The notes under the pieces are model-generated. The model ran no database searches, was not told the DNA's origin, and saw only the letters and a program-made list of their open reading frames with translations. Shown here piece by piece: positions 1-7,695 of a stretch of DNA of 7,695 nt. This DNA comes from a virus (Duplodnaviria; Heunggongvirae; Uroviricota; Caudoviricetes): positions 1-7,695 of IMG/VR virus record IMGVR_UViG_2778261454_000007; one strand, 5' to 3'. The translations under genes and the position numbers were made by a program. Positions within the stretch are counted from its first letter, which is position 1, and each line of letters starts with the position of its first letter.

Positions 1-61
1 GCGGCATAACCTGAATCTGAGGCAGCACCTGGCACGGCTGGGACGGAAGTCGCTGTCGTTC

Positions 62-1270
62 TCAAAATCGGTGGAGCTGCATGACAAAGTCATCGGGCAT
101 TATCTGAACATAAAACACTATCAATAAGTTGGAGTCATTACCCGCCAGCATAGCGAAACAATATGTATCCCAATGGTCTGGTGAGTGCAGGTTGAGTTTT
201 TTCTTCATATCCTCCTTACTCATCACCTTCCATTGACCTGCGGAGTTAATCCCTACAGGGATTTTCGACGCTTCCTCAATAGTTTCATTACCCTTATCCA
301 GTCTCATACGACCAGATTTTACGGCCTCTGCGGCTTGAACGTTGGCATAAGCACGCTTATCAAAGTACAGGCTCTTATCTTCACGACTATGCATCTTTTT
401 ACCCCAGCGTATACGCTGTACGGTAATACCATAATGCTCGTACATCAGATCCGCCGTTGCTTTACCCAGGCCATCGCCGTCGATCGCTATGGTGATATTT
501 GGGAATCGCTCAGGATTACATTCTGCGAAAATTTTGGCGGCAAGCTGCGTTTCTGTAACGTCTGTGTATTCCAGCATTCGATAGTTGATTACACGGCGTT
601 TATTTCGCTGGCCGGACACCATCATGATATTGATAACGGACTTATCCCGTCCCGTACCACCAGCAACGTCCACACATGCAAGCCAGCCCCATCCTTTGGC
701 AATCTTGACTTTCCGCCGCGTTGCACGTTCAACCTCATCACGTCCAAGAAGGAAGCCATCCTGTGATTTAGGGAATAGGCCGCGTACCTTAATCATGTAC
801 ATAGGGTTATCACGCCCGCCGTACTCCGCCAGCTTCATTTTGATAAATGCTGGCGTTACCAGCGGTGATTCCTCACTGTTAAGCGTGATCGCCGTATAAA
901 CGCCATCAGGGTTACCAGGACGCTTGACCAGTTTATGGTGTGTATCGTAGAAATAGCCGCTTGGGCGTGTAGGCTGTGACAGCAATAAGATGCGGTTATC
1001 CTGTCCGGTAAGAGCACCGGTGATGATACCGAAAGCTCTATCACTGACACCGGAGGCTTCATCGATAATATACAGAAGATGATCTGCGTGTTCACCGGCG
1101 AGAGCTTCTTCACTTCCCAGACGAAAGCCCTTCGGTACTACAGTCCATACACCTTTACCAGTAACCTCATAGAAAGCGGTTTCTGTCAGAACAAAATAAT
1201 CAGCAAGCCATGGAAAACGGCTGGTGGCCGTAGCCCAGTTTATCTTGATGTACTTGAATATACCGGTCAT
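62..1270 (-). CDS. pacB: Terminase large subunit (pacase PacB-like), C-terminal 402-aa segment; same frame as 1277..1546 but separated from it by an in-frame TAG, so the intact gene would span 62..1546 (494 codons)
   Basis: Minus-strand ORF with ATG at 1268..1270. Contains a Walker-B-like [11 protein letters not shown] and a C-terminal acidic-residue nuclease-like region ([18 protein letters not shown]) typical of phage large terminases. It lies directly downstream of pacA, and the combined length of 494 aa matches my recollection of P1 PacB. Confidence 0.85.
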
Positions 1271-1276
1271 TACCTG

Positions 1277-1546
1277 CTAAATTTTGTTCGCAACGATAAT
1301 GGCACGGGCACCGGGATACATGATTATGAACAACATGATCATGATAGAAGTCATGTCTGATTTCCCGGTACCGTGACCAGACGAAACAGATGTCTTGCTA
1401 CCCTGTTCCTGCACAGACTCAATAATCAGATCCTGCTGCCAGGTAGGTGTTTTGCCGAACAAAACATCAGCGGCCGCAATCCAGTCATAACGATATAGCG
1501 CCACCAACTCGCGCCAACGTGGATCCGTTACGCAACTTCTGGCCAT
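1277..1546 (-). pseudogene. pacB: PacB N-terminal 89-aa segment terminated by an in-frame amber codon (TAG = revcomp of 1277..1279); gene appears disrupted
   Basis: ATG at 1544..1546 overlaps the pacA stop (TAATG). Carries the P-loop-like SGHGTGKS. Frame arithmetic: 1546 and 1270 are both 1 mod 3, so the two ORFs share a frame; the codons read ...ANKI-TAG-CAG-GTA-ATG(TGIF...). Confidence 0.8.
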
Positions 1547-2739
1547 TAATCATCATCCCCGTATAGCTTGCGGGTAACTTCTTCGTCTTCCTCCTCGTCT
1601 TCGTCTAGATCTTGTTCCAGCCATGGTTCGTTTGATACACCTTCAGTATCAACATCTCCATAACCGCCTGTATCAACGATATCGGCGATTTCTTCCCTAC
1701 GTTGCTCAATCCACAATGCAGCATCGGCGCGGCGGTTGGCGGCCCGTTCTCGCGCAACTTTGTCCAGATCTTCAAGAGAAGGGCCACCGACGGCTGTTTG
1801 CCTTTCCTCATCATCGGTATTGGTCTTAGGAGCACGCAGATCGGCTTTGATTTGCTCCAGCATCAGGGGCGGAACTTTCCCGCCATGCGCCTCGATGAAT
1901 TCAGCTGCTTCCAGCACTGACCAGTTATTTTCACGCTTTCGTTCGTATGCCAGCTTAACAATGCCAGCCTGCCCCATAGACAAAGCGTGCTTTTCCGCCT
2001 CCCGGCTTTCTTTTCGATAGTTATTCCGGATGCTGTAAATGGTGTTGATCAGACTGCTTATCTGCGCGGAACAGCTGTTTAGCATGCTCGCGATACGGTA
2101 TTCAGGCGGAGTACCTTCATCATCGTCTTTTTGCTGATCGCGCATTTCCTGCACCAGGCGAATACACGTATCCCTGGCGTTCTCCAGCATAAGGAGATGA
2201 GAAAGAGACTTTTCAAGAAGAGTGGTTTCCAGAACATCGGCCCCGGACCGACGCAACATAGCGCGCGCGGCCTTCCGCGCTTCAACGTTATCTATCAGGT
2301 AATCGCCAGCTTCGAATTCAAAGCGTTCACCATCATCATCCAGGGTGTCGCGTTCCAGGCGATCACGTAAGGTCCGGTGGGCGCGGGTGATCACGTCATG
2401 ATCATCTGAACGATCATTTATGCGCTTATTTTGGCGCTTCGCATTCTCGACTGCGGCACTGACAACGGCATTAACTCTCTGTTTTTCCGCTATTTCAGCC
2501 GCAATATGATCACCTGCATGTTGATCATTAGAGTGATCAATGATCATGCTTTTTAGTGGCTTCCTGACTGGCTTATTTGGCTTGCGGCTGTCCGCAGTCC
2601 TGGTGTCTTCTTTGAAGGCACGGAGATAACGACGTGCAGTATTAGGGTTAAGATTAAACTCGGCGGCATACTGTGCGATGGTGTAACCACCATCTCGCGC
2701 CAGGCGAGCAAAATTCTTCTTGTGATCGTCCCAGGTCAC
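1546..2739 (-). CDS. pacA: Small terminase / pacase subunit PacA (397 aa) with N-terminal HTH and highly acidic C-terminus
   Basis: 397-aa ORF; N-terminus [39 protein letters not shown] is HTH-like, and the C-terminus [13 protein letters not shown] is acidic. Apparent GTG start (revcomp of 2737..2739) preceded by AAGGAAG. The TGATC(A/G) hexamer clusters of a P1-type pac site lie inside its 5' third, and it is translationally coupled to pacB. Confidence 0.9.
2360..2546. other. pac-type packaging site: two clusters of TGATC(A/G) hexamers (Dam GATC sites) inside pacA
   Basis: Hexamers at 2360-2365 (CGATCA), 2388-2393, 2399-2404, 2411-2416 (CGATCA), then 2507-2512, 2522-2527, 2534-2539, 2541-2546 (TGATCA), with about 90 bp of hexamer-free DNA between the clusters. 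P1 pac is described as about 160 bp with seven TGATCA/G elements, four at one end and three at the other. Confidence 0.75.
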
Positions 2740-2824
2740 TTATGCTTCCTTTCGTAAAAACTCTTTTTGACGCGAGGGTAACGAAAGTCACATGTCAAAA
2801 GGCCCGGAACGGGCAAGCAATCAA

Positions 2825-3277
2825 TCAGATACGTGCGGATGTGGCATTACCGTAATGACGGTGCTGACGGGCCACCTTATTGAAAAGTTGACGCGCCATT
2901 ACCCAAGGCTGGTGCTCCCGGCGTTCCTTTTCGTCCTGCGTCATATAGAGTTCGTTCTGGAGTTTTTCATCAAACCGGCGCGGAGCGCGGCTACGGCGAA
3001 AGAATTCAGGATTCAGAGAGTGGATCTGAAATCTACGTGGGCGTGTACTGTCATCAATCAAAACAGACGAATACTTAGACACAGCGATAGCCTTTAAGCG
3101 CAGATAAACATCGCGCTTATCGACATCCAGATGTGGGTATTCCTTTTCAAGAATTGCTGCGAGTTCTTTCGCTGATAGAAGAGATTTAGTGCGGATCATG
3201 TAATCCGCAATCTCGTACGATGTTATTCGTGAGTGATTTATTTCCATGAAGTGGCGTCCCTGCCAGTTAAGTAACAT
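2825..3277 (-). CDS. lpa: Late promoter activator Lpa-like protein (150 aa)
   Basis: 150-aa ORF with ATG at 3275..3277 preceded by AGGTGA. It sits immediately upstream of pacA/pacB in the same orientation, which is the P1 arrangement. Identity is by recollection of P1 Lpa (gp10) and gene order, not by alignment. Confidence 0.75.
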   Translation of the reverse strand: MLLNWQGRHFMEINHSRITSYEIADYMIRTKSLLSAKELAAILEKEYPHLDVDKRDVYLRLKAIAVSKYSSVLIDDSTRPRRFQIHSLNPEFFRRSRAPRRFDEKLQNELYMTQDEKERREHQPWVMARQLFNKVARQHRHYGNATSARI

Positions 3278-3322
3278 CCTGTCACCTACTGATTAGCCCA
3301 TGTCAACTAATCAACGTGGAAT

Positions 3323-3364
3323 ATAATACCATCGATTAAAGAAATAGCAATACATTAGAGCAAT
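3323..3364 (-). promoter_or_regulatory. Putative lpa promoter (-35 TTGCTA 3345..3350, 16-bp spacer, TGG-extended -10 TATTAT 3323..3328) overlapping a C1-operator-like 17-mer (3348..3364)
   Basis: The minus strand reads ATTGCTCTAATGTATTG, versus the P1 C1 operator consensus ATTGCTCTAATAAATTT as I recall it (first 11 nt identical, 14/17 overall). A sigma70-like -35/-10 pair overlaps this site, about 45 bp upstream of the lpa ATG. Confidence 0.45.
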
Positions 3365-3365
3365 T

Positions 3366-4409
3366 TTATCTAACACTCGACGAGTGACTTGTGATAGCGC
3401 CGACTCCAAGCGCGTAATCAAAGAACAATCGTTGATGCATCGCCAGCCTACCGTGCGTCTTCTCCCAATTATCGCGGTCACGCTCAATATCACGCTGGCA
3501 TGACTGGCACAGAGGAATTGCGTAAATGTCATGCGCGCATAATCGACTATGACGAACGATATAAGGCGTAATGTAAGCGCCAGCTCCCGCCGCTCCACAC
3601 CCACAGCATGGACGGGAAGCAACAAAGTCCATGTACTCAGGTAATTTTAGCGATTGCAGTTTTGGTATTTTGAAATGCGCCATGCCAGGGTCGGAGTCAA
3701 CATCCACAGGGCATACTTTTGCACGCATCGGCGCGGCGCGTTCTTCCATCATCTGAACATATGCTGTAGCGCGATCGTCATACGGGCGAATATCCGCCTC
3801 TTTCAGAGGTCCGCTATCCTGCGTTGCGGCTTTCATCTTATTTATTGATATACGGCAAACTTCTTCCGGCATCAGGTGCATCATGTTGCGCATGAAAGCC
3901 CACCAGCACAGTTCCTGAATACTTAAATCATGGCCATCTGAAAGCCCCATTTCCTGACGGGCGACATCCAGTATCCAGTTAACGCGATTATTATGCAGCG
4001 TTTCTTTCAGCTCATTAAAACCACGCATCCGGTAATGGTTATCGTGATGCCAGCACAACAACACCGCGCTCTTGTCTCGTTCAGCGTGGACAATATGGTT
4101 GTCACACCAACTACGATCTGCGGCCTGGCATTGCCCCTCTTTCCTGCGCAACCACGCCACCAGCGAGTCAATTCCACCAATACGGTGAAACAGTTCATCG
4201 CTGTTAAAAAACGGCTGCAACGCCTCATTTGTTGCCATGGTTTGCTCGGTAACAACGAGGCCGTCTTCCATGTGCTCGATTAACTCACGCGGCACCGGCT
4301 CCATAATAAATTTACGGCCAGCCTCCACCAGCTTTCTGACCTCCTGATCCACTTTGAACGTGGCGAGGCCAAGCTCTTTCTGTACAAAGGGAGTAATTAC
4401 GGCTTTCAC
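3366..4409 (-). CDS. pdcB: Post-doc protein PdcB-like, 347 aa, function unknown; Cys/His-rich C-terminal region (CCGCG...H...CAHD...CQSC) suggests a Zn-binding, possibly HNH-like, domain
   Basis: Long minus-strand ORF with GTG start (revcomp of 4407..4409) preceded by AAAGGTG; stop at 3366..3368. Its position after doc/pdcA and before lpa matches P1 pdcB from memory. No catalytic motif is assigned with confidence. Confidence 0.65.
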
Positions 4410-4436
4410 ATCACACCTTTCATCACTGATTGGGCT

Positions 4437-4616
4437 TTATCTGCTGCCCGGCATTCTCTGTTTAAGCACAACCATTTCCTGACGGCATAACACAGCAATA
4501 GCAGTCCTGGCTCCAATTTGCTTACCAACCAGGTATTGCTTTACCTCGCGGCGACTCACGCCATCAAGAAGCATCTTTAACGCTTCACGGGACAATTTGT
4601 TGTATTTGCGTGCCAT
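4437..4616 (-). CDS. pdcA: Small post-doc protein (59 aa from ATG 4614..4616; the ORF track extends to 4637), possible HTH-containing regulator
   Basis: ATG at 4614..4616 lies 5 nt after the doc stop and is preceded by GGAG; the longer start at 4637 would overlap doc. The sequence LSREALKMLLDGVSRREVKQYLVG is helix-turn-helix-like. The gene symbol is assigned by position only. Confidence 0.5.
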   Translation of the reverse strand: MARKYNKLSREALKMLLDGVSRREVKQYLVGKQIGARTAIAVLCRQEMVVLKQRMPGSR

Positions 4617-4620
4617 TAAT

Positions 4621-5001
4621 CTACTCCGCAGAACCATACAATCTACGTAACGTGTCGGCGACAGAAGATACAGATATCTCGCCAGTCGCAGCGCCTACAG
4701 TAAGGTCTGCCAGTTCAGGTGAATCAAATACCTGCACTCCGTTACGGCGTAGAAATAGCAGCGCACTGTTTAGCGCGGTACGCTTATTGGCATCATTGAA
4801 TATATGCCCTCTCGCTGTAGCCACCAGGTAGGTGGCGGAGACTTCGAAAAGGTCGGTGATATCTTCGTAGGCAACTCTGGCCTGAACTCTCCCGATAATG
4901 GCCTCTGCCCTACCCGGATCTGACATTCCCGGCAGGCCGCCGTAGCGGCTTATATTCGCATCATGAAGCGCAATAAGTTCTTCCGGTGATATATGCCTCA
5001 T
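4621..5001 (-). CDS. doc: Doc toxin (death on curing; Fic-fold kinase), 126 aa
   Basis: Contains the Fic-type motif HIFNDANKR. Length and sequence match my recollection of P1 Doc. The start ATG (4999..5001) overlaps the phd stop (5001..5003) as TAATG. Confidence 0.95.
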
Positions 5002-5222
5002 TATCGGTTAACCAGTTCCTTGTTGGTGGAGTCCAGGGTGTCAAACAGGGATGCAAATTCAGCATCCAGCGCCGCTTTTTTGTAGGCTTCGAAAGTAGCC
5101 TTGCTGACAATTACTGCTGGCTCACGGCCTCTGCGGGTGATTTCAACCTCTTCCCCGGCTTCAACATTGTTGAGCACTTCAGAAAGGTTGCCGCGCGCGG
5201 TACGGAAGTTAATGGATTGCAT
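5001..5222 (-). CDS. phd: Phd antitoxin (prevent host death), 73 aa from ATG 5220..5222
   Basis: [41 protein letters not shown]... matches my recollection of P1 Phd. GAGGTG sits 4 nt upstream of the ATG at 5222. The ORF-track start at 5228 is a GTG two codons upstream and is less likely. Confidence 0.93.
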
Positions 5223-5228
5223 AAACAC

Positions 5229-5259
5229 CTCGTGTACTCGTTATGTGTACACAATTATA
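5229..5259 (-). promoter_or_regulatory. phd-doc promoter and operator: -10 TATAAT (revcomp of 5254..5259) followed by palindrome TGTGTACACA (5244..5253) and a second GTGTAC-containing imperfect palindrome (5231..5240)
   Basis: The minus strand reads GTTTATAATTGTGTACACATAACGAGTACACGAGGTGTTTATG. Phd is known to autorepress by binding palindromic operator sites that overlap its promoter. Confidence 0.7.
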
Positions 5260-5354
5260 AACTTCACAGGCATAAAGCACCAGCACTTTGCGGCTTAACA
5301 AACCTCTAGGCAGGTCATTCGTAGCCTAATGTCCGAACTGCTAAAGCATCCAAG

Positions 5355-5366
5355 TTGCTGTAGAAT
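5355..5366 (+). promoter_or_regulatory. Possible hsdM promoter -10 element TAGAAT (5361..5366); no convincing -35
   Basis: This is the only reasonable -10-like hexamer within 40 bp upstream of the hsdM ATG. Support is weak. Confidence 0.25.
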
Positions 5367-5398
5367 CACCGCCAATTACATAAGCCTGAAATAAGTGG

Positions 5399-6961
5399 AT
5401 GAAAATGACAAGTATTCAACAACGTGCAGAGCTTCATCGTCAAATCTGGCAAATTGCTAACGATGTCAGAGGTTCGGTCGATGGATGGGATTTTAAGCAA
5501 TACGTTCTGGGCGCGCTTTTCTACCGTTTTATCAGCGAAAATTTTTCCAGCTATATTGAAGCCGGTGATGACAGCATCTGTTATGCGAAACTGGATGACA
5601 GCGTAATTACTGATGACATTAAAGACGATGCCATCAAAACCAAAGGCTACTTCATCTACCCAAGTCAGCTTTTCTGCAACGTAGCTGCGAAAGCAAATAC
5701 CAATGACAGACTGAACGCAGATTTAAACAGCATCTTCGTTGCTATCGAAAGTTCTGCTTACGGTTATCCTTCAGAAGCAGACATCAAAGGTTTGTTTGCT
5801 GATTTCGATACCACCAGTAACCGCCTGGGTAACACCGTTAAAGATAAAAATGCCCGCCTGGCTGCGGTTCTGAAAGGGGTTGAAGGGTTAAAGCTTGGCG
5901 ACTTTAACGAACATCAGATTGACCTGTTCGGCGATGCCTATGAGTTCCTGATTTCTAACTATGCCGCGAATGCCGGTAAGTCAGGCGGCGAGTTCTTTAC
6001 ACCGCAGCACGTCTCTAAGCTGATTGCACAACTGGCAATGCACGGCCAGACCCACGTTAACAAAATCTACGACCCGGCAGCAGGTTCCGGTTCGCTGTTG
6101 TTGCAGGCTAAAAAACAGTTTGATGACCATATCATCGAAGAAGGTTTTTTTGGTCAGGAAATCAACCATACGACCTATAACCTGGCGCGTATGAACATGT
6201 TTTTGCACAACATCAACTACGACAAGTTTGATATCAAGTTGGGCAATACGCTGACTGAGCCGCACTTCAGAGATGAAAAACCGTTTGATGCCATCGTTTC
6301 TAACCCGCCGTATTCGGTGAAATGGATTGGCAGCGATGACCCGACGCTGATTAACGATGAACGTTTTGCCCCGGCTGGCGTTCTGGCCCCCAAATCCAAA
6401 GCTGACTTTGCGTTTGTATTACATGCGCTGAACTATCTTTCTGCCAAAGGTCGTGCTGCGATTGTCTGCTTCCCGGGCATTTTTTACCGTGGCGGCGCGG
6501 AGCAGAAAATCCGTCAGTATCTGGTTGACAATAACTATGTCGAAACCGTGATTTCACTCGCACCGAACCTGTTCTTTGGCACCACCATTGCCGTCAATAT
6601 TCTGGTGTTGTCTAAACATAAAACGGATACCAACGTTCAGTTTATTGATGCCAGCGAGCTGTTCAAAAAAGAGACTAACAACAACATTCTGACCGATGCC
6701 CATATCGAACAGATTATGCAGGTATTTGCCAGCAAGGAAGATGTTGCTCATCTGGCGAAATCTGTCGCGTTTGAGACCGTTGTCGCGAATGACTATAACC
6801 TGTCGGTGAGCAGCTATGTGGAAGCGAAAGATACTCGCGAAATTATCGATATCGCTGAGTTGAATGCAGAGCTGAAAACCACGGTCAGCAAAATCGACCA
6901 GTTGCGTAAAGATATTGATGCGATTGTGGCTGAAATTGAAGGCTGCGAGGTGCAAAAATGA
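5399..6961 (+). CDS. hsdM: Type I restriction-modification methyltransferase subunit HsdM, type IC (EcoR124I/EcoDXXI/EcoprrI family), 520 aa
   Basis: N6-adenine methyltransferase motifs are present: AdoMet-binding [10 protein letters not shown] (6071..6100) and catalytic NPPY (6302..6313). The N-terminus [25 protein letters not shown] and the 520-aa length match my recollection of EcoR124I HsdM. The stop overlaps the hsdS start (ATGA, 6958..6961). Confidence 0.95.
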
Positions 6962-7695
6962 GCGAGTTGAGTTATCTGGAAAAATTGCTGGATGGGGTTG
7001 AGGTTAAATGGAAAGCAGTGGGCGATATCGCCGGGTATTCAACAACCAAAGTTGATGCTGATAAACTTGATGCCACTTCATTCGTTGGCGTTGATAATCT
7101 CCTTGCTGATAAAGGCGGTCGCATTGATGCCACCTATCAGCCTAATACGGCACGTTTAACTGCCTATGAGCCAGGTGATATTCTTTTAGGTAATATTCGC
7201 CCATATTTAAAGAAAGTTTGGATGGCGGAGAATAATGGCGGGTGCAGTGGTGATGTCCTTGCTATACGCATTTTAGCAGACTGTAAAAAAATTATTAGTC
7301 CAGAATATCTCTACTATGCATTATCGTCGGATTCATTTTTTTCTTACAGTATGCAGCACGCTAAAGGGGCAAAGATGCCTCGAGGCAGTAAAGATGCAAT
7401 TTTAAACTATCAAATACCCATCCCTTGTCCCAGCGCCCCGGAAAAATCCCTTGCCATCCAGTCTGAAATTGTTCGGATTCTGGATAAATTTACTGAGCTT
7501 ACAGCAGAGCTTACAGCAGAGCTTACAGCAGAGCTTAGCATGCGTAAAAAACAATACAACTACTATCGCGACCAGTTGTTGAGTTTTAAAGAGGATGAGG
7601 TTGAGGGTAAGAGGAAAACCTTAGGGGAAATTATGAAGATGCGTGCCGGACAACATATTTCGGCTCATAATATAAATGAAAGAAAAGAAGAGAGT
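6958..7695 (+). CDS. hsdS: Type I R-M specificity subunit HsdS, 5' partial (246 codons; continues past window end): N-terminal target-recognition domain plus central conserved region with TAEL repeats
   Basis: ATG at 6958..6960 overlaps the hsdM stop. The conserved N-terminus [16 protein letters not shown] and the central region [49 protein letters not shown] are typical of type IC HsdS. There is no stop codon before the window end. Confidence 0.9.
7495..7536 (+). repeat. Tandem 12-bp repeat ACAGCAGAGCTT x3 (7501..7536) preceded by a 6-bp partial copy GAGCTT (7495..7500), in frame, encoding (T)[14 protein letters not shown] in the HsdS central spacer region
   Basis: Three perfect tandem copies are visible in the sequence. 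In the EcoR124I/EcoR124II system the copy number of this 12-bp unit (two versus three) sets the spacer length of the recognition site (N6 versus N7). Confidence 0.9.

Follow-up and report, generated by a model that had tools for sequence, protein, structure and literature searches.

Type IC restriction-modification systems are recognized by an HsdM subunit that is closely related to, and interchangeable with, the HsdM of EcoR124I/II, EcoDXXI and EcoprrI, and their genes normally follow the order hsdM-hsdS-hsdR. The spacer length of the bipartite DNA target depends on how many TAEL repeats HsdS contains: EcoR124I has two (N6), EcoR124II three (N7). A 1997 article by Tyndall et al. (Mol Microbiol 23:729) reportedly describes P1 DNA at the flanks of type IC hsd loci. 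The record of reference P1 (NC_005856) carries three corresponding misc_feature annotations, which describe positions 87969-88647 as sharing 98% identity with the DNA that precedes the EcoDXXI hsd locus, 84263-84482 as matching the sequence downstream of this locus, and 84399-84482 as matching the sequence downstream of the R124/3 hsdR gene. The slot delimited by these annotations contains pmgT-pmgU-pmgV-upfMNO-hot-lxr-humD in reference P1, with humD directly upstream of phd, and pmgT-humD is number 8 among the eight highly variable regions that a 2022 survey distinguishes in P1-like phage-plasmids (PMC9603915).

Here we analysed a stretch of 7,695 nucleotides from a Caudoviricetes record (IMG/VR IMGVR_UViG_2778261454_000007, positions 1 to 7,695), hereafter termed the window, which very probably represents the left half of a complete hsdM-hsdS-hsdR type IC cassette that resides in the pmgT-humD slot of a large P1-like prophage-plasmid lineage. 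The larger part of the window is a P1-like (Punavirus) gene block on the minus strand. Window 143-5298 aligns in one piece and at 92.9% nucleotide identity to P1 93125-87970, and other P1-like plasmids are 97-98% identical to this backbone. As stated in the original prediction, the gene order is colinear with P1, i.e. pacB (62-1546), pacA (1546-2739), lpa (2825-3277), pdcB (3366-4409), pdcA (~4437-4637), doc (4621..5001) and phd (5001..5222), all on the minus strand. Colinear with its P1 counterpart and with a Pfam Fic/DOC domain, doc encodes the toxin of the P1 addiction module; phd encodes the antitoxin (Pfam PhdYeFM_antitox), with a start that corresponds to P1 88046 when mapped to the P1 annotation. 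The P1 promoter Pphd is also kept (5254..5282, minus strand; P1 annotation 87986-88014 mapped via the alignment), with its -10 box TATAAT at 5254-5259 and its -35 box TGGTGC at 5277-5282. An Rfam scan across the whole window found no RNA families.

The backbone shows signs of decay. An IS1 end (1 to ~142) replaces the last 27 codons of pacB, the open reading frame of which has the same length as in P1 by coincidence, and pacB is in addition interrupted at 1277-1279 by an in-frame TAG (amber) codon in place of the CAG found in a related plasmid. The packaging function has probably been lost in this element. Its nearest record is plasmid pLR-06-2 of E. coli LR-06 (NZ_AP025548.1), which is 99.96% identical over window 1-7537; within this 145-kb plasmid, IS1, IS30 and cargo genes break up the P1 segments. 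Judging by the state of pacB and by these broken P1 segments, the backbone is probably a defective P1 remnant rather than a viable phage and, the element looking defective, the cassette may no longer travel as phage.

The cassette itself is read from the plus strand, and its first gene starts 176 bp from phd (5223-5398), which confirms the coordinates of the divergent type IC hsdM-hsdS pair in the original prediction. Downstream of a 100-bp leader of non-P1 sequence (5299..5398, plus strand), which is specific to the cassette and presumably contains the hsdM-hsdS promoter region, lies an intact hsdM (5399..6961, plus strand) that encodes a type IC N6-adenine methyltransferase subunit of 520 amino acids with the Pfam domains HsdM_N and N6_Mtase. 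The start codon of hsdM is ambiguous by two codons, since a second ATG at 5405 is the RefSeq start for a 518-amino-acid version of the protein. It is followed by the first 246 codons of the specificity gene hsdS (6958..7695, plus strand; Pfam Methylase_S), which is open at the window end and overlaps hsdM in an ATGA motif; this overlap suggests coupled expression of the two genes.

By several features, this cargo is a bona fide type IC system of the EcoR124 family. A full-length comparison of HsdM with the M protein of EcoR124II (PDB 7bst_D, 7BST) gives 518 identical residues out of 520 (99.6%); the match of the type IA EcoKI HsdM to the window HsdM is weak (E=1e-17) and limited to the catalytic domain. 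In HsdS, residues 1-17 and ~150-215, i.e. the N-terminal and central conserved regions, align to EcoR124II HsdS, whereas the first target-recognition domain (TRD1) is unrelated to that of EcoR124II, and the first half-site should therefore not be GAA and the specificity should be different. In the central conserved region a 12-bp tandem repeat, GAGCTTACAGCA, is present in 3.6 copies (7495..7537, plus strand; Tandem Repeats Finder, 100% matches) and encodes TAEL three times, the same count as in EcoR124II. It is the combination of HsdM identity, the conserved regions of HsdS and this TAEL repeat that supports the assignment. A review table mentions type IC members that have four extra residues in the HsdS central region. 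The likeness to EcoR124I and EcoR124II (plasmids R124 and R124/3; PDB 7BST and 2W00) extends to the overlap of hsdM and hsdS, to the P1-derived flanks and to the HsdR protein of pLR-06-2.

The original prediction had emphasized that no hsdR lies upstream, and had expected it downstream of hsdS or else missing. In fact, hsdR is absent upstream of hsdM within the window, and in pLR-06-2 hsdS is followed, after 122 bp, by an hsdR gene of 1038 codons and then by P1 pap. The encoded protein matches EcoR124 HsdR (2w00_A) end to end, i.e. over residues 1-1038 and with 2283 bits. The order hsdM-hsdS-hsdR was found in all six complete loci inspected (pLR-06-2, the phages vB_EcoM-673R5 and phi456, plasmid pRHB12-C02_3, a non-P1 plasmid and a chromosomal island), with hsdR downstream in every one and, in the relatives of the window, behind its own intergenic region. 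Thus, the absence of an upstream hsdR is no anomaly. Extrapolating from the near-identical pLR-06-2, hsdR should also lie downstream in the window's own molecule, past the end of the stretch analysed here.

Loss or disruption of hsdR in this particular molecule, which would leave a methyltransferase-only remnant (HsdM2S) without restriction, is improbable. Decayed copies of the cassette do exist, since the IncF plasmid pC16EC0593-1 keeps pdcA-doc-phd next to hsdM-hsdS, with hsdR in fragments beside IS elements, and the window element already contains IS1 and a nonsense codon in pacB; yet in pLR-06-2, the closest match to the window, hsdR is intact. Even less probable, to the point of being barely credible, is a locus of the prr type, in which prrC or another defence gene would be inserted between hsdS and hsdR of the window element. 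The order hsdM-hsdS-prrC-hsdR, which the original prediction had cited, is real and occurs at the same site in a few P1-like plasmids: in pRHB12-C02_3 we directly inspected a gene for the PrrC anticodon nuclease between hsdS and hsdR (positions 19982-21172 of locus L004), and three other E. coli plasmids have the same order. This prrC is found, however, in only eight plasmid records, as compared to 719 with the junction between phd and the hsd cassette. Moreover, the short hsdS-hsdR gap of pLR-06-2 lacks prrC, and the TRD1 of the window hsdS differs from that of the prrC-bearing plasmid, with homology lost at ~7000-7437. As a separate observation, hsdR of the prrC-bearing pRHB12-C02_3 is directly followed by P1 pap, annotated as a 3'-phosphatase, i.e. 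the type of activity that heals nuclease-cut tRNA ends.

How the cassette came to occupy this position can be read from its junctions. Aligning the window to P1, as the original prediction had proposed for 5223..5398 in order to locate the homology breakpoint, places the left junction at window 5298..5299: P1 homology ends at window 5298, equivalent to P1 87970, at the stop codon of humD and 16 bp past the -35 box of Pphd. Pphd is fully retained, with both of its boxes. Both breakpoints are common to four P1-like elements: towards phd the break falls at P1 87970, and towards pap at P1 84482, which lies 5 bp ahead of the first codon of pmgT; the cassette therefore replaces pmgT-humD as a block. 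The humD gene, correctly named in the original prediction as the immediate upstream neighbour of phd in P1, is part of what has been replaced. The limits of the misc_features in the P1 record (84482 and 87969/70) are the very breakpoints measured here. The junction sequences compared are alike apart from one or two substitutions (one at the left junction, compared in pLR-06-2 and pRHB12-C02_3), and the cassette between them measures 6.2 kb, or 7.2 kb with prrC. A search for repeats at the junctions revealed only short imperfect matches of the kind expected by chance, with no terminal direct or inverted repeats and no transposase at the ends. Together, shared junctions and the lack of repeats and transposase are most simply read as one old replacement that would later have been passed on by homologous recombination via the flanking P1 DNA. 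Either block, the hsd cassette or pmgT-humD, may be the ancestral one.

A recent and independent insertion of cargo into the window element, for which the listing of pmgT-humD among the eight variable regions of P1-like elements (PMC9603915) could speak, is very improbable and contradicted by the shared junctions, given that one and the same pair of P1 coordinates marks the breaks in four P1-like elements, that the junctions compared differ by one or two substitutions, that the P1 record gives identical limits for EcoDXXI and R124/3 and that the junction has neither flanking repeats nor a transposase. The 100-bp leader also occurs in some non-P1 plasmids, with homology beginning at window 5300, and is absent from chromosomal type IC loci, where homology starts only at ~5393-5402, i.e. 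at about the start codon of hsdM. A scan of 5150-5450 for consensus sigma-70 promoters and terminators found nothing; even Pphd, which is known from experiment, escaped it owing to a weak -35 box, and the scan is thus uninformative about the hsdM promoter. By eye, TAGAAT at ~5363-5368 would be the best candidate for a -10 box of hsdM. One of the non-P1 plasmids, pUTAK-6-1 (positions 7222-11897 of locus L006), carries the same cassette with the same left boundary (window 5300), and genes for a humD-like S24 peptidase and a hot-like theta subunit are located ~1.1 kb away on the opposite strand. This neighbourhood hints at an older link between the cassette and the hot/humD region.

The variability of this locus, suspected in the original prediction, is borne out by the listing of pmgT-humD as a variable region (PMC9603915). 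The unusualness that was implied at the same time does not hold, since the gene order is the same in all six loci, the cassette occurs in hundreds of plasmids, the flanks are annotated in the P1 record and comparison across P1-like genomes finds the same hsdMS at the same position many times over, an outcome that the original prediction had itself named as a refutation. When PLSDB was searched with 200-bp junction probes, counted at >=80% coverage, the phd-hsd junction was present in 719 records, as opposed to 432 with the P1-type junction between humD and phd, and at least 183 plasmids cover at least 80% of the whole 7.7-kb window, i.e. P1 backbone plus hsdMS. The same cassette with the same breakpoints is also found in the sequenced P1-like phages vB_EcoM-673R5 and phi456. 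Conjugative IncF plasmids carry a short fragment with pdcA-doc-phd next to hsdM-hsdS, and here hsdR is sometimes destroyed by IS elements. Outside of the variable domains of hsdS, vB_EcoM-673R5, phi456, pLR-06-2 and pRHB12-C02_3 share slot, junctions and 96-100% nucleotide identity; what differs are the recognition domains of hsdS, and in phi456 hsdS is split into several annotated CDSs. The EcoDXXI and EcoprrI loci are similar in the two P1 breakpoints (annotated in the P1 record for EcoDXXI and R124/3) and in phd-doc adjoining hsdM, but the window differs from them in being flanked not by short remnants but by a long P1-like backbone (pacB-phd, and pap to pmgM in its relatives). Phage phi456 carries the P1 Res/Mod system (type III) as well as the type IC cassette (positions 959-3871 and 12800-20034 of locus L002), which means that type III and type IC systems are not alternatives.

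The arrangement is therefore already known, and the window contains an ordinary type IC member in a classic P1 context. As a discovery this has little value, being a correct re-identification of the textbook association of type IC hsd genes and P1 DNA. A useful by-product is the finding that the hsd-bearing arrangement is commoner in current plasmid data than that of reference P1. In addition, all elements examined show a swap that respects the gene boundaries exactly. Reference P1 is therefore an atypical representative at phd/humD, which annotators of P1-like phage-plasmids should bear in mind.

If the cassette functions like EcoR124, for which a review describes methylation by HsdM2HsdS, a translocating endonuclease and delayed restriction via the second HsdR, two HsdM subunits would assemble with one HsdS into an adenine methyltransferase with a bipartite target. 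This target would be defined by the pair of recognition domains in HsdS, and its spacer by the TAEL repeats in the central coiled coil. With HsdR added, the complex would become an endonuclease that translocates at the expense of ATP and cleaves DNA lacking the modification. On arrival in a naive host, restriction would be delayed because the second HsdR binds weakly. For a lysogen, the cassette would thus provide defence against incoming DNA and, alongside phd-doc, it may help to retain the element. The cassette very probably represents an old exchangeable module with ends fixed at gene boundaries, and the P1 flanks offer homology by which it can pass from one P1-like element to another or to other plasmids and back.

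The window molecule and pLR-06-2 are not the same, as indicated by two differences. One is a single extra A in a short A run of the pLR-06-2 hsdM (position 17459 of locus L003, as compared to window 5459), which causes a frameshift in a gene that is intact in the window; in addition, the PLSDB gene table of pLR-06-2 does not list this hsdM. The frameshift may be a sequencing error or a real inactivation. The other difference concerns the 12-bp TAEL array, which has three copies in the window versus nine in pLR-06-2 (L003 19496-19603). Either the copy number of this array changes quickly, or long-read assemblies miscount it.

A regulatory role may be considered for two features of the cassette. 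In pLR-06-2, the right junction (L003 23543|23544, equivalent to P1 84482) keeps the C1-controlled pmgT promoters and the operator Op88, oriented antisense into the 3' end of hsdR. If antisense transcription from PpmgT acts on hsdR, restriction might drop when the prophage is induced, and if the TAEL array is a fast-changing contingency repeat, HsdS could alternate among spacer lengths or be turned on and off; taken jointly, these two readings seem unlikely. Tandem arrays of 4-11 copies of exactly this TAEL 12-mer are also present in distant bacteria, on contigs labelled Clostridia, Succinivibrionaceae, Oxalobacter and Melioribacteraceae, within hsdS-like genes whose flanking sequences diverge.
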